A stretch of 64,000 nt of DNA from Bacillota bacterium (GCA_040766745.1 JAXGPX010000001.1:187950-251949), one strand, 5' to 3'. Counted from the stretch's first letter, positions 3,737 to 25,143 are shown. The notes: generated by a model not told the origin, from the letters alone. A program made the numbers and translations.

Positions 3737-4600
3737 ATGCCTTACGGAAAACCAATAGGCCTGGGGTTATTTGCTGGGGTGCTGGCAAGAGTCTTGTTAT
3801 TGCGTTCTGATTACCGCCAGTACCCCACTTACCCTCACGGTTATACATCCCACCTTTTTCTCGGAATCATTGCCGCCCTTGTAGGAGCAGTATCCATTCC
3901 GGCCTTATTGACGAATGAATGGACTGCAGTGACTTTTCTGGTACTTGTGGCACAGCAATTTAGAGATATCAGGAGTATGGAAAGGGATTCTTTGAAGGCT
4001 CTGGAAGATACGCAACTGGTTACAAGGGGAGCCGACTATATTGAGAACATCGCAAGGGTATTTGAGACCAGATACTATGTAGTAATATTCGTTGCAGTGT
4101 CAACGGCTTGGGGCAGCAGCTATGGTTCTGCCATAGTAGGCTTGTTGCTGGGAGCCGCATCTCTTGGTTTGAGCATGGTGATGACAAAGGTTGAGCATCT
4201 AGGCAGATCAGTACTGGCTGAAATTGCCCCGGTGGTTTTCAGAGATGCCGGCCTTTATGTTGGTGATATCTTCATTATGAACGTAGGACTGGAGGAATCA
4301 CGCCTGTATATTTCCGAGCATGGATTGGGTGCAATTCTTACCCCGCTAACAGAAACTGCAAGGGACACTATTGCCAGCCTTGGACAGAGGCAGGCAATAC
4401 TTCATGACGCTACAGGGATTCTTGGCGTTAAGAAAGACCTTGATACTCCTGAATTTACACCGATTGCAAGGAGGCATATAGAATCCGGGCGTGTAGGCTT
4501 GTTTATGGTACCTGAAGAGCGTGACGAGGAATTGCTCATCAGAATTGTCAAGCGTACTCCGGTGTTAGAGTCTTCGAGAGGCCGGACCTTACGCGGCTAG
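3737..4600 (+). CDS. YIEGIA-family membrane protein (sporulation-associated, found next to spoIIP in Clostridia)
   Basis: Contains the family signature here as GADYIENIARVFETRYY, plus hydrophobic helices. Its start codon directly abuts the spoIIP stop (cag tag ATG), suggesting translational coupling. Confidence 0.7.
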   Translation: MPYGKPIGLGLFAGVLARVLLLRSDYRQYPTYPHGYTSHLFLGIIAALVGAVSIPALLTNEWTAVTFLVLVAQQFRDIRSMERDSLKALEDTQLVTRGADYIENIARVFETRYYVVIFVAVSTAWGSSYGSAIVGLLLGAASLGLSMVMTKVEHLGRSVLAEIAPVVFRDAGLYVGDIFIMNVGLEESRLYISEHGLGAILTPLTETARDTIASLGQRQAILHDATGILGVKKDLDTPEFTPIARRHIESGRVGLFMVPEERDEELLIRIVKRTPVLESSRGRTLRG

Positions 4601-4825: not shown

Positions 4826-5595
4826 TGCAGAGAAGCCCGGAACTGCTTATAGCAAGAAGTAAACACAGGTTGCTGAAATATGCTCAAGATAAGGGGATTA
4901 TGCCCTGGGAAATTACATGGGGAAAACAGGGCTTTGGCGGGCGAGCAAATCAATTGTTCCTGGCATGGGGCGTTGACCCTTCGCCTCTTGCCGAACGGGC
5001 AATGGCTTCAGTAATAAGATTATATATTAATAGAAAACAGGCTGCGCCCAGTATATTCTATGTTTGCTATGCGGGAACCCACACTTCTGTTGTTGCCTCT
5101 GCCCTGCATTTAGACAGCATTTGCTTTGAGGATATTCAGAGCCGCGGCTACAAGGCCTTAACCTGTATTCCGTATTTTGACAGGCGTACAACCGCCGATA
5201 TCGGGGTTCCGGTATACATTGGAAGTGACCGAAACGGATCCGACATTTATGTTATGGGAACAGGATGGCTGGGTTTGCCTCTTGAGTTATGCCTGTGTGA
5301 CCTGATCGAGCTGGCGTGTCCCGGCACAAGGGCATGTATCTGCAATGTAAGGGGAATTCTTGATTTCCAGGCCAGACTGGGAGGCTTTCTTTCAAGGCGA
5401 TTCAACCTCGTTGTACCCGGGCGCCGCATTATCGCCCGGTCCTTGTCAAGGAAAGTTCCTATGTTGCGCCAGGCTGCCACATACTGTCTTGACCTCTCTG
5501 GCAAGTGGAAGGATAATGGGAGTCACACTGAAGGGGAGGTTACCTGGATTGACGGCTGCAAACAGGGGCGGATTGGTATGCCGGGTCGAACCTGA
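4825..5595 (+). CDS. Conserved hypothetical protein (256 aa), function unknown
   Basis: Long ORF translationally coupled to the preceding small gene. Its 3' end overlaps the probable DUF512 start by about 80 nt, so the true end or the downstream start is uncertain. Confidence 0.45.
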   Translation: MQRSPELLIARSKHRLLKYAQDKGIMPWEITWGKQGFGGRANQLFLAWGVDPSPLAERAMASVIRLYINRKQAAPSIFYVCYAGTHTSVVASALHLDSICFEDIQSRGYKALTCIPYFDRRTTADIGVPVYIGSDRNGSDIYVMGTGWLGLPLELCLCDLIELACPGTRACICNVRGILDFQARLGGFLSRRFNLVVPGRRIIARSLSRKVPMLRQAATYCLDLSGKWKDNGSHTEGEVTWIDGCKQGRIGMPGRT

Positions 5596-11881: not shown

Positions 11882-13060
11882 ATGTTATACGATTTCGACA
11901 GAATATACAACAGAAAATCAACTTTGAGTGCAAAATGGTCTGTTGAAGAGGTTTTTGGCCACGATGATATCATACCGCTTTGGGTTGCAGACATGGATTT
12001 TCCTGTTGCCGAACCGATTGTGAGGGCACTGAAGGAGCGCGCTGATCACCCTATATTTGGTTATACCAGGGTTAGCCCCGGCCTGTATGAATCAATCATA
12101 AACCGGCTGGACGCAAAGTTCGGGTGGAAAATAGAGAAAGAGTGGATAGTCATAACGCCCGGTGTTATGCCTGCAGTAAATACATCAGTTGTTGCATTTA
12201 CGTCACCGGGTGACCTGGTGGCCCTGCAAAGCCCTGTTTATCCGCCTTTCTGGTCTTCGATTTCAGGCAATGGCCGTGAAGTCGCAGCTAACCGGTTGAA
12301 ACTTACCGGCGGCCGCCACGAGATTGATTTCAAAGATCTTGAGAGCAAGTTTCGCGGCCATAAAGCTCGAGCAATGATCTTGTGCAGTCCTCACAACCCT
12401 GGAGGGAGAGTGTGGAGTAAAGAGGAATTGGTGAGGATGGGAGAGATAGTGATTAGTTCGGGCGGTGTTATGATTGCAGATGAGATACACTGTGAACTTG
12501 TCATGAAGGGTTACTCTCATACCCCATTTGCTGCTATTAGCAAGGAGTTTGCCATGAACTCGGTCACGTGCTTTGCCCCCAGCAAAACATTTAACGTCCC
12601 AGGGTTCCATACATCTGTTGCCATTATTCCTAACGAGGAATTGAGGCAAAAGTTTGACAAGGCAAGGGGGAGGATCATGGGATCGCCCTGCCTTTTTGGG
12701 CTTGTTGCCATGGAGGCGGCATTTAAGTACGGAGACGAATGGCTGAGCCAGGCCATTGACTATATTGAGGGCAACATAGATTATGCAACGGAGTTTTTCG
12801 AAAATAGTGTGCCCGAGATAGTTCCTATGCGGCCAGAAGGCACATACCTAATTTGGCTGGATTGCAGGGGATTAGGATTGAAGCCTGAAGAACTGAAGCC
12901 TTTCTTTGTAGAAGAGGCAAGGGTAGGCTTAAATGACGGTATTACATTCGGTGCCGGGGGAGAAGGGTTTATGCGGCTCAACGTTGGATGTCCAAGGGCA
13001 ATTTTGCAGGAAGGCTTGAACAGAATAGAGAAAGCGGTAAAGGCACGCCGCAAGGTTTAG
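11882..13060 (+). CDS. PLP-dependent C-S lyase of the MalY/PatB family (class I/II aminotransferase fold; cystathionine beta-lyase-like)
   Basis: Characteristic N-terminus (YDFDRIYNRKSTLSAKW...DIIPLWVADMDFPVAEPI) and PLP-lysine region (SPSKTFNVPG). Confidence 0.8.
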   Translation: MLYDFDRIYNRKSTLSAKWSVEEVFGHDDIIPLWVADMDFPVAEPIVRALKERADHPIFGYTRVSPGLYESIINRLDAKFGWKIEKEWIVITPGVMPAVNTSVVAFTSPGDLVALQSPVYPPFWSSISGNGREVAANRLKLTGGRHEIDFKDLESKFRGHKARAMILCSPHNPGGRVWSKEELVRMGEIVISSGGVMIADEIHCELVMKGYSHTPFAAISKEFAMNSVTCFAPSKTFNVPGFHTSVAIIPNEELRQKFDKARGRIMGSPCLFGLVAMEAAFKYGDEWLSQAIDYIEGNIDYATEFFENSVPEIVPMRPEGTYLIWLDCRGLGLKPEELKPFFVEEARVGLNDGITFGAGGEGFMRLNVGCPRAILQEGLNRIEKAVKARRKV

Positions 13061-23058: not shown

Positions 23059-23128
23059 ACCCATGCATTGGCGCTTCTGCCGATAAAGGTGGGCACAGGT
23101 ATTTTCTGCACCTTTAATGGAGGTTTTT

Positions 23129-24334
23129 ATGCTTACAGGGCAATTGCTTGAGCTTATTTATGAGGCTGCAAGTATTCAGCGTTGGAACGATCATATAAGG
23201 CCTGCTCAGGGGTTTACCGAACTCGACAAGCAGGCCCATAAAATGGTATATGCCTATGTACTCGGCAAATTTGAAGAAGCCGGTGGTACTTTGCAGTTCG
23301 ATTGGACCAAACTTATCGAAGGCGGATTGTTTGAGTTCCTTCATAGAATAAAGCTTACCGACATTAAGCCCCCGGTGTTTCACAAAATAATGGAAGAGAA
23401 AGGGCATGAGATTAACCGCTGGGTCCTTGGCCAGTATGAAGACCCTCTTAGCCGGATTGATTCTCATCTTTACTTGCGCTTTCGGGAGTATCTTGCCAAT
23501 GACAAGTACAGTTTCGGCGAAAAACAGATACTCAAGGCTTCTCATTACTTGGCGACTAATTGGGAGTTTCAACATATATACAGGCTAAATGCAGGTTTGT
23601 ATGGGCTTGAAGGCGAGAAAGAGAGCATAGAGGGCAGGTTAAGCGAACACGGTTCGCTTATCGGCGTCAGAACGCTGGCTTTGGATAGGAACATTCATAA
23701 TTTCATGGATCTTGTAGGCCAGCTCCGGTTTCAGCAAAGATGGGGGCAGTCGCCAAGAATACCTCAGACATCGGTCCTTGGGCATATGCTTATAGTTGCT
23801 CTAATTGCTTTCTTTGCTTCACTTGACCTGGGTGCTTGTCCCAAGCGGATGTACAATAACTACTTTTGTGGATTGTTTCACGATTTACCCGAAGTTTTGA
23901 CCCGGGATATTGTTGCTCCCGTAAAGCGGTCAATTCCTGATTTGGACAAGATAATCAAGGGCATTGAGTCTTCCTGGTTTGATGAGCGGATCTACCCGCT
24001 GCTGCCTGATTCATGGCACAACGAGATCAGGTACTTTGTAGAAGATGAATTTGCAGACCGCATTCGGGTTAATGGGAAGCGGGTCAATGCAACAATCACC
24101 TGTGAATATAACAGAGATTCCTACGACCCCCTGGACGGAACCGTGGTCAAAGCCTGTGACCAGCTTGCTGCTTATGCAGAGGCATTCCTTTCTATAAGGC
24201 ACGGTATCAGATCAAAGGCCCTAAAAGACGGCCTCTCAATCTATAGCCTCTACCGGGATCGGAAAAACATGGTCTCTGGAGTGGATTTCGGCACTGTCTT
24301 CAGTCACTTCAACCCCAACGAACTCGGCTTGTGA
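23129..24334 (+). CDS. HD-domain phosphohydrolase-like protein with a long N-terminal extension (YfbR/5'-deoxynucleotidase-like HD core)
   Basis: Motifs LGHMLIVALIA...GLFHDLPEVLTRD (H..HD...D). The second ATG (23129) has GGAGG 5 nt upstream. Confidence 0.6.
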   Translation: MLTGQLLELIYEAASIQRWNDHIRPAQGFTELDKQAHKMVYAYVLGKFEEAGGTLQFDWTKLIEGGLFEFLHRIKLTDIKPPVFHKIMEEKGHEINRWVLGQYEDPLSRIDSHLYLRFREYLANDKYSFGEKQILKASHYLATNWEFQHIYRLNAGLYGLEGEKESIEGRLSEHGSLIGVRTLALDRNIHNFMDLVGQLRFQQRWGQSPRIPQTSVLGHMLIVALIAFFASLDLGACPKRMYNNYFCGLFHDLPEVLTRDIVAPVKRSIPDLDKIIKGIESSWFDERIYPLLPDSWHNEIRYFVEDEFADRIRVNGKRVNATITCEYNRDSYDPLDGTVVKACDQLAAYAEAFLSIRHGIRSKALKDGLSIYSLYRDRKNMVSGVDFGTVFSHFNPNELGL

Positions 24335-24339
24335 AACAT

Positions 24340-24795
24340 TGGGGACGGTCTGGCCTTAGGTGGTCGGTTTTAGTACCAGGTTTGGTCCGAAGGTGGTCGA
24401 TTCTGGTACCGGGTTTGGCTGAAATCTGGCCGGTTTTGGGGCCAGTAAGGCCTCTGTGAGAACAAAAACGGGGGCTTTTTTACTGGATTTGGGCTGAGGT
24501 GGTCGATTTTAGTACCGGGTTTGGCTGAAACCTGGCGGATTTTGATACCAGGTTTGGTCCGAAGGTGGTCGATTCTGGTACCGGGTTGGGCTGAAATCTG
24601 GCCGGTTTTGGGGCCAGTAAGGCCTCTGTGAGAACAAAAACGGGGGCTTTTTTACTGGATTTGGGCTGAGGTGGTCGATTTTAGTACCGGGTTTGGCTGA
24701 AACCTGGCGGATTTTGATACCAGGTTTGGTCCGAAGGTGGTTGATTCTGGTACCGGGTTGGGCTGAAACCTGGCCGGTTTTGGGGCCAGTAATGC
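24340..24795. repeat. Tandem array of about 2.6 copies of a 172-bp unit. Each unit is built from two related ~86-bp halves sharing a ~35-bp core GGTGGTCGATTYTRGTACCRGGTTKGGYYGAAAYCTGG.
   Basis: Exact period of 172 bp: the same motif 'ggtccgaaggtgg' starts at 24384, 24556 and 24728. Contains the embedded inverted repeat ccagtaa...ttactgg. Lies about 270 bp upstream of tRNA-Pro. Confidence 0.85.
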
Positions 24796-25066
24796 TTTTA
24801 GAGGGGGCCAAAATTGCTTTGTAATGGAGGCCTAGTGGGCTAAGATGTTCAGCTACTGTCTTGATTGTCGATTTCTCCTCCAATACTTGTTCCATGACGT
24901 AAACTCTCCGTGTTCCTTTGGTGCTCAAGAAAATGTCTTCTCCTCTCATCATGGTGACATTTTCTCAGTCCGCTTACGAGGTGACAATATCACTGTCCGG
25001 TAACAAAGATTGCTGGTGTTCTAGACAAATGGAGTCGAAAAGGTTACAATAGTACCTGCATTGAGT

Positions 25067-25143
25067 CGGGCTGTGGCGCAGCTTGGTAGCGCGCTTGAAT
25101 GGGGTTCAAGAGGCCCCGCGTTCAAATCGCGGCAGCCCGACCA
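25067..25143 (+). tRNA. tRNA-Pro (anticodon GGG)
   Basis: Cloverleaf folded by hand: acceptor cgggctg/cagcccg, D-stem gcgc/gcgc, anticodon stem cttga/tcaag with loop ATGGGGT (anticodon GGG), T-stem ccgcg/cgcgg with TTCAAAT loop, 3' ACCA encoded. Confidence 0.85.

Follow-up and report, generated by a model that had tools for sequence, protein, structure and literature searches.

A 172-bp tandem repeat array upstream of a tRNA-Pro gene in a Bacillota bacterium: part of a truncated MITE-like element probably derived from the IS1202 family

The locus and its repeat array

The window analysed here is a 64,000-nucleotide stretch of DNA from a Bacillota bacterium (GCA_040766745.1 JAXGPX010000001.1:187950-251949). 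An HD-domain gene and a gene for tRNA-Pro(GGG) flank a tandem repeat array, which is followed by the remnant of a transposase gene and by IRL, one of the two inverted-repeat ends of a mobile element (Table 1). Pfam and tRNA calls confirm this placement of the array between the two genes, as given by the initial annotation, and a LuxR-type gene is also among its neighbours.

Table 1. Features between the HD-domain gene and tRNA-Pro(GGG), in window coordinates
Feature	Position	Strand	Basis or remark
HD-domain gene	23117-24334		Pfam HD_3
Left boundary marker GGGGACGGTCTGG, host sequence	24341-24353	.	Lineage-specific REP/terminator-like motif
Tandem array, ~2.5 units of 172 bp	24359-24789	+	Repeat detection, core positions, unit alignment
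Partial unit (B/A hybrid, C, D)	24359-24497		
D-module hairpin, first copy, CCAGTAAGGCCTC...GGGGGCTTTTTTACTGG	24442-24486	+	Terminator-like
Full unit	24498-24669		A 24498-24533, B 24534-24563, C 24564-24599, D 24600-24669
D-module hairpin/T-run, second copy	24614-24658	+	
Partial unit (A, B, C, head of D)	24670-24789		
Conserved junction CCAGTAATGCTTTTAGAGGGGG... at array end	24786-24820	.	Common to all family copies
Remnant, first ~44 codons of transposase gene (ATG at 24952)	24821-24952	-	Register match to ISKpn21 HTH
Inner ~20-bp repeat of IRL, CGGACTGAGAAAATGTCACC on minus strand	24953-24972	-	Presumed transposase-binding site
Inward-facing promoter-like site TTGTCA-17-GAAAAT inside IRL	24959-24987	-	
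Terminal part of IRL, minus strand TGTTACCGGACAGTGATATTGTCACC	24980-25005	-	Element terminus at 25005
16-bp spacer AAGATTGCTGGTGTTC, terminus to -35 hexamer	25006-25021	.	Position of target duplication in complete copies
tRNA-Pro promoter TAGACA-17-TACAAT	25022-25050	+	
tRNA-Pro(GGG)	25067-25143	+	Gene whose promoter is the insertion target

Tandem Repeats Finder reports a period of 172 bp over 24374-24792 (score 817; 2.4 copies with 98% matches) and, nested within it, a period of 33 bp. Repeat copies lie at 24361-24532 and 24533-24704 (97%) and are followed by a partial third; in ungapped comparison of the 172-bp frames, the first two agree at 166 of 172 positions and the partial third at 88 of 91. 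A 21-nt core motif occurs eight times, always inside 24362-24759, with an expectation of zero in a shuffled 64-kb window. The array is real and lies where the initial annotation had put it, in about 2.5 copies that are 96-98% identical, and the reported inverted repeat CCAGTAA...TTACTGG with its G5/T6 tract is present in both D-module copies. The proposed division of the unit into two 86-bp halves requires correction, as the spacing between cores is 33, 33 and 106 and each unit comprises four sub-repeats, A, B, C and D (36, 30, 36 and 70 nt), the last being a sub-repeat split by a hairpin/T-run of ~37 nt. The 33-bp sub-repeats are palindromic, each of the form CCRGGTTT-N6-AAAYCTGG. The D hairpin is terminator-like on the plus strand only, because its folding requires G-U pairs. 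A CRISPR array, already excluded at first reading, was rejected for want of unique spacers: the segments between cores are themselves repeated and the neighbours include no cas-like genes.

To the left, homology to other copies of the element starts at ~24354, directly after GGGGACGGTCTGG, a motif also found at the 3' end of the HD gene in a relative with an uninterrupted locus (discussed below). It belongs to a short lineage-specific motif, GGGGACGGTYCTKG, which often follows GGAACRSC and recurs just downstream of genes, sometimes in palindromic form. Besides the site in Table 1, it was seen at L163 ~4183-4196, L030 13140-13205 (three copies) and L032 2760-2810 (as a hairpin), and its sequence suggests a repeat of the REP or terminator type; in the window, host DNA meets the truncated element at this motif. 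Upstream of the region, comparison of L003 (44-1441), a metagenome variant of the window locus, with L001 (1-2012) shows a UPF0236-family (transposase-like) gene where the window has NiFe-hydrogenase genes, which looks like a strain-level rearrangement.

A dispersed element with IS1202-type ends

The minus-strand open reading frame (ORF) at 24509-24952 noted by the initial annotation exists and runs into the repeats, although it is spurious within the array. Its beginning had been likened to the helix-turn-helix (HTH) of an IS3-type OrfA; the recognition of an HTH-type transposase N-terminus holds, whereas the family matched is IS1202. Residues 16-37 of the remnant are in register with residues 16-37 of the transposase of ISKpn21 (IS1202 family), within the HTH_28/HTH_23 domain, and over residues 9-38 of both proteins the pairwise E value is 1e-6 with a consensus of three copies and 2e-4 with the sequence of the window copy. 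A tblastn search of plasmids gave weak matches, almost all to ISNCY/ISKpn21 transposases (IS1202 family, formerly ISNCY); Pfam and NCBIfam searches with remnant fragments gave nothing significant (top match HTH_Tnp_ISL3, E=0.099) and no IS3 match. Only the N-terminal ~38 residues survive, and these align with the HTH region. Since the remnants carry stops and frameshifts in other copies and the DDE domain is absent from the element, it is non-autonomous. No parent transposase came from a word-indexed search in which three aligned remnants were the query, HMMER with the 44-aa remnant against 1.84 billion representatives returned only another remnant (P0012) and junk repeat proteins, and no search made recovered a full-length parent with these ends or this N-terminus.

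The array, the remnant and the sequence as far as 25005 constitute a single dispersed element that is present at no fewer than seven loci among related uncultured Bacillota; its copies contain between 0.5 and 3.7 array units. A scan with the core motif of one genome per species gave 13 matches, among which L009, a Candidatus Fermentithermobacillaceae MAG (Bacillota), is the sole true relative; it has the same A-B-C-D layout at 92% identity but at a different locus, with its array just upstream of a seven-tRNA cluster. The other 12 were rejected as single chance matches. A metagenome scan contributed four further contigs, L028-L031, with 3.7, 1.7, 0.5 and 1.7 units, and more copies (L032-L037) were recovered by using the spurious array ORF as a protein query, because the array is often mis-called as a gene. 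Viral contigs scanned with the motif GGCCGGTTTTGGGGCCA and an IRL 14-mer gave chance matches only. The flanks of L037 were discarded as those of a chimeric ENA metagenome contig with Nextera adaptor sequence; at 460-490, 640-660 and 1020-1060 of this contig, an element fragment is bracketed by the adaptors CTGTCTCTTATACACATCT / AGATGTGTATAAGAGACAG.

The conserved region extends beyond the array on both sides. Window positions 24786-25005, the ~210 bp to the right of the array, recur in L029, L031, L033 and L034 and, shortened, in L030; this right arm includes the start of the transposase remnant and the sequence GGTGACATTTTCTCAGTCCGC...GGTGACAATATCACTGTCCGGTAACA. On the other side, L009, L028, L029, L031, L032 and L034 share a conserved left arm ahead of the array. 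Both ends are present in L029, L031 and L034, and the element spans ~0.45-1.1 kb depending on the number of array units. Complete copies have TGT...ACA inverted ends with two ~20-bp sites per end. The left arm starts with TGTCAACGGACTAYGATTCTGTCACC, an inverted copy of the right terminus, and reads TGTCAAC... in L009, L029 and L031. The paired sites (24953-24972 and 24980-24999 in the window; the left end of L028, L029 and L032) occur only at element ends, always in inverted orientation and nowhere else in the loci. The 50-nt end of the window copy (24956-25005) matches the IRL of ISCde4 at 43/50 positions and that of ISTna1 at 41/50, compared with 18/50 for ISAba32, and the left end of L028 matches the IRR of ISCde4 at 38/50. 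L029 and L034 contain a 17-bp direct repeat (14/17) flush with both termini, with flanks GGCTACTATCAAACAGC and GACTACTATCCGACAGC; this clean target duplication was seen at one insertion, present in the two assemblies, and was looked for and not found at the tRNA-cluster locus L009/L031.

Members of the ISTde1 subgroup of the IS1202 family are distinguished by TGT ends, compound ends and a 16-17-bp duplication (bioRxiv 10.1101/2022.12.17.520857; PMC10132070), and the two-site layout is also seen in the published inverted repeats (supplementary table, bioRxiv 10.1101/2022.12.17.520857). The element has 5'-TGT inverted repeats with a second block at about position 20, a duplication in the 16-17-bp range (L029/L034) and two sub-terminal repeats. 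Based on these ends, one target duplication and a match of ~30 residues, it is probably a derivative belonging to this subgroup. In the manner of MITEs, it is short, lacks a transposase gene, carries the inverted repeats of a parent IS at both edges, and is dispersed over at least seven loci in several assemblies with presence/absence polymorphism (empty site in L163/L164). Two of the possibilities raised by the initial annotation are supported: the array with its right flank is a family of dispersed genomic repeats, and its inverted ends, target duplication, recurrence at no fewer than seven loci and empty site in a relative mark it as a decayed mobile element. A Tn7-like or CRISPR-associated transposon was rejected; the ends are Tn7-like, but the neighbours include no tnsABC, tniQ or cas12k and the array has no unique spacers.

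The empty site is found in the relative L163/L164, whose HD protein is 73% identical and which has the same gene order of epimerase, MarR and HD. The distance from the HD stop codon to tRNA-Pro(GGG) is 100 bp in L163/L164, compared with 732 bp in the window, and the empty site carries a TAGACA-17-TAAACT promoter, of which the tRNA-Pro promoter of the window is the homologue. The window contains IRL, and no IRR was found anywhere in its 64 kb; the second copy of the target duplication was lost together with this end. Insertion at the locus is inferred from the other copies and the empty site, because the window has neither IRR nor the second duplication copy. The window copy is truncated on one side and immobile, unable to transpose because IRR and the adjoining host DNA are gone. 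To judge from its sequence, the inward-facing site in IRL would be the expected driver of the former transposase gene, and it would direct antisense transcripts (24987-24959) through the array toward the HD gene. The insertion also placed IRL DNA over positions -40 to -60 of the tRNA-Pro promoter, the region of UP elements and activator sites.

Insertion next to promoters

Three of the seven distinct loci are directly upstream of tRNA genes (tRNA-Pro, a Gly-to-Leu cluster, and tRNA-Ala in L033), and the remainder are upstream of MATE and imuB-like genes. In five unrelated flanks, the IRL terminus is positioned 16, 16, 17, 18 and 17 bp from the hexamers TAGACA, TTGACC, TTGAAA, TTGACT and TTGACT, each of which, as a -35 element, is separated by 17 bp from a downstream -10 element TAnnnT (window 25006-25050; L009 2832-2885; L029 2404-2460; L030 ~12880-12945, minus strand; L033 ~4900-4960, minus strand). 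L032, which has a degenerate right end, was left out of this measurement. The same IRL is located 17 bp from TTGACA-17-TAAACT in the Thermovirga lienii plasmid pTLIE01 (CP003097.1; L158 2960-3030). This plasmid copy (L158 2976-3070) is a mini-element of ~70 bp with little beyond IRL (TGTTACCGGACAGTGATATTGTCACC) and an IRR-like end (...ATAACA), and its promoter faces an unannotated region resembling a structured RNA.

The same arrangement is apparent in published flanks of ISTde1-group elements, for which 34 rows with a duplication of at least 15 bp were transcribed by hand from the supplementary table of bioRxiv 10.1101/2022.12.17.520857. In 22 of the 34 rows, the last bases of the flank on the IRL side, immediately ahead of the duplication, are CAA, in most cases as TGTCAA. 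Strict promoter matches flush with the duplication are present in 18/34 rows for the IRL side and in 3/34 for the IRR side, with 0-1 matches at each of the other 44 offsets, and in several rows the adjacent promoter is that of a tRNA gene. In the IS1202 subgroup, which has a 24-28-bp duplication, the promoter match is at offset 0 in 10 of 15 rows. The main text of the preprint (bioRxiv 10.1101/2022.12.17.520857) contains no mention of TTGACA, GTCAA or sigma and uses "promoter" in other contexts only; no description of promoter adjacency was found in the literature searched, a scope that stopped short of the journal version and of ISfinder/TnPedia.

These observations lean, by a little more than an even chance, toward recognition of the -35 hexamer of sigma-70-type promoters by the ISTde1 and IS1202 subgroups and by this MITE, with insertion one duplication length upstream and usually with IRL nearest the promoter. 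Recognition would perhaps occur while RNA polymerase is bound to the promoter. An alternative to promoter recognition is recognition of a pseudo-end, because TGTCAA is also the tip of IRR. In the supplementary table, the duplication lengths of the IS1202 family (5-6, 16-17 and 27-28 bp) differ by about one helical turn, and in each subgroup the IS lies one duplication length from the recognised feature, either a Xer site or a -35 hexamer (bioRxiv 10.1101/2022.12.17.520857). This spacing suggests that all of them capture their targets beside a bound protein in the same geometry. The ISAba32 subgroup targets XerC/D sites (xrs, dif), and in its partial copies it is mostly IRR that is lost and IRL that is retained (bioRxiv 10.1101/2022.12.17.520857). 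Its IRL abuts the feature at duplication-length distance and in fixed orientation, the same geometry as described here, and the window copy fits the pattern of a retained IRL and a lost IRR; in contrast, the present element adjoins a promoter -35 hexamer and not a Xer site, at a distance of 16-18 bp where that of the ISAba32 subgroup is 5-6 bp.

ISCde4 of Candidatus Desulforudis audaxviator and ISTna1 of Thermodesulfobium narugense, both of the ISTde1 subgroup of the IS1202 family (Siguier et al., bioRxiv 10.1101/2022.12.17.520857; Microb Genom PMC10132070), are the closest comparison. Like the element, they have TGT termini with two ~20-bp sub-terminal repeats ending AATGTCACC, a 17-bp target duplication and an IRL one duplication length from a promoter -35 hexamer; ISCde4, like the window copy, adjoins a tRNA promoter. 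Unlike them, the element has no DDE transposase gene, only ~45 decayed N-terminal codons, and the rest of its interior is replaced by the 172-bp array, which is not reported for those IS, and in the window copy IRR is missing as well. The feature belongs, as a truncated copy, to a MITE-like family that had no name before and that derives from an ISCde4/ISTna1-like parent.

Array variation, alternative readings and significance

The number of units varies within a locus. The window has 2.49 units, compared with 1.49 at the same locus in six metagenome contigs (L001-L006, ~99.4% identical), a difference of exactly 172 bp that could alternatively be a collapse in short-read assembly, and L035 has 2.73 units where L009/L031 have 1.71. 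Units are 94-97% identical within arrays and 87% identical on average between loci, which from the sequences points to local expansion and homogenisation. The array is concluded to be a variable-number repeat within a MITE-like element, with no evidence of a function of its own. At most, the D-module hairpins and T-runs may terminate transcription incidentally on the plus strand, in the stretch from the HD gene to the tRNA promoter; a selected role is conceivable in view of the constant module order (A-B-C-D), the palindromes of the 33-bp sub-repeats and a single symmetric double change.

Such a role could be that of a protein-binding array, in which a dimeric protein, either the transposase or a host factor, binds phased 33-bp palindromes; the array would then enhance transposition, act as a sink for transposase or work in the manner of iterons. 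The palindromic sub-repeats recur at ~three helical turns, the module order is kept across loci and species at ~87% identity, the symmetric double change in L029/L034 preserves the palindrome, and the array starts directly inside IRR, where the sequence is already sub-repeat-like. However, the number of units varies from 0.5 to 3.7 and is down to roughly half a unit in L030, no candidate for the binding protein is encoded, the 70-bp Thermovirga mini-element has ends without an array, and on inspection the sub-repeat gives no convincing alignment with the terminal ~20-bp sites, the half-site spacing being off by 3 bp. A selected binding array, which is compatible with a place inside a MITE, is on balance unlikely. 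Derivation of the sub-repeat from the terminal sites, or the reverse, is not claimed, as the likeness is loose and the spacing differs by 3 bp. Slightly more doubtful is a structured non-coding RNA, or a series of intrinsic terminators shielding the tRNA promoter from HD-gene read-through. One unit folds as plus-strand RNA at -66.3 kcal/mol (z = -3.1), a value reached by none of 200 shuffles; the D hairpin precedes a T-run, one-sided changes keep its pairs (G-U to A-U, U-G to U-A), and a terminator-like site lies at 24770-24789. Yet G/T-rich strands fold well through G-U pairs (the minus strand has z = -1.9), compensatory change affects one of 58 predicted pairs across 11 units with a covariation term of -1, and the terminator scan did not call the D hairpin, because of its 15-nt loop. 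Apart from the tRNA, nothing in the window matches an Rfam family at its gathering score.

The two further readings attribute the locus to an integrated island or to a protein. That the region is the att-site scar of an integrase-type island using tRNA-Pro, close to the integration scar envisaged by the initial annotation, is very improbable: the region adjoins a tRNA gene and its D modules share the 13-nt string AACAAAAACRGGG with the sequence immediately following the tRNA, but this string is short, imperfect, outside the tRNA and judged a chance match. A search for att-like direct repeats of the tRNA 3' end found none flanking the element. The element lies upstream of the tRNA promoter rather than at the 3' end of the gene, no integrase gene is nearby, other copies precede the protein-coding MATE and imuB-like genes, and the inverted-repeat ends and target duplication indicate transposition. 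Hardly any credence attaches to the minus-strand ORF as a real gene for a repeat protein. It is open for 147 codons and similar ORFs are called as genes in several assemblies, but it has no Pfam match, its database relatives are other element copies only, its N-terminal part has stops or frameshifts in other copies, and the T-poor minus strand is open by composition. Because 172 is not a multiple of three, each repeat shifts the reading frame and none is maintained through the array. Gene prediction has repeatedly turned the minus strand of the array, with its few T residues, into a 'hypothetical protein' of 110-200 aa (the window ORF, L002 7254-7664 and equivalents, P0001-P0010 and P0012), and these database entries are artefacts.

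The features of the locus are very probably explained jointly by a MITE-like non-autonomous derivative of the IS1202 family, of which the array is the internal copy-number-variable segment and which inserted here and then lost IRR. Its parent would be an ISCde4/ISTna1-like IS of the ISTde1 subgroup, and its layout is IRR, array, ~160 bp with the first ~45 transposase codons, and IRL. A TnsB/MuA-like DDE transposase, acting in trans, would bind the two ~20-bp sites at each end and make a 16-17-bp staggered cut. The insertion puts IRL one target-duplication length (16-18 bp) upstream of a sigma-A/sigma-70 -35 hexamer, that of the tRNA-Pro promoter in the window. tRNA genes would often be hit owing to their strong consensus promoters and not to a tRNA att site. 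The window copy later lost IRR and neighbouring host DNA, and local growth and shrinkage of the array would come from slippage during replication or from unequal recombination among the 172-bp units, so that units are more alike within arrays than between loci and the same locus differs by exactly one unit.

Among bacterial MITEs and modular dispersed repeats, the pneumococcal BOX element (boxA, a variable number of boxB, boxC), RUP and the Correia elements are likewise short, non-autonomous, multi-copy and intergenic with IS-derived inverted ends, and BOX also contains an internal module in a variable number of tandem copies. The element has no sequence relationship to them; its parent, an IS of the IS1202 family, has compound ends of the Tn7/Mu type and duplicates 17 bp of target, and its repeated module is long (172 bp) and built from 33-bp palindromes. 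Yeast Ty1/Ty3 and Dictyostelium TRE5, which target DNA upstream of Pol III genes, insert just upstream of tRNA genes by homing on the transcription machinery or promoter and not on the gene sequence. These are unrelated eukaryotic retrotransposons and the likeness is one of mechanism only, with recognition of promoter-bound RNA polymerase by the element being a hypothesis.

The array itself is of little importance, the conspicuous repeat beside the tRNA being a transposon remnant, and the region should be annotated as such rather than as a hypothetical protein, as in several assemblies. As a variable-number locus, it may be of use for strain typing in this uncultured Bacillota lineage. Much of the value for further work lies in the promoter-adjacent insertion geometry. 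If confirmed and previously undescribed, this pattern would offer a bacterial example on which promoter-directed transposition can be tested; it would explain the enrichment of insertions next to tRNA genes, represent a bacterial counterpart of the promoter-homing eukaryotic retrotransposons, and bear on how insertions avoid genes, on the rewiring of upstream promoter regions and on tools for targeted insertion.
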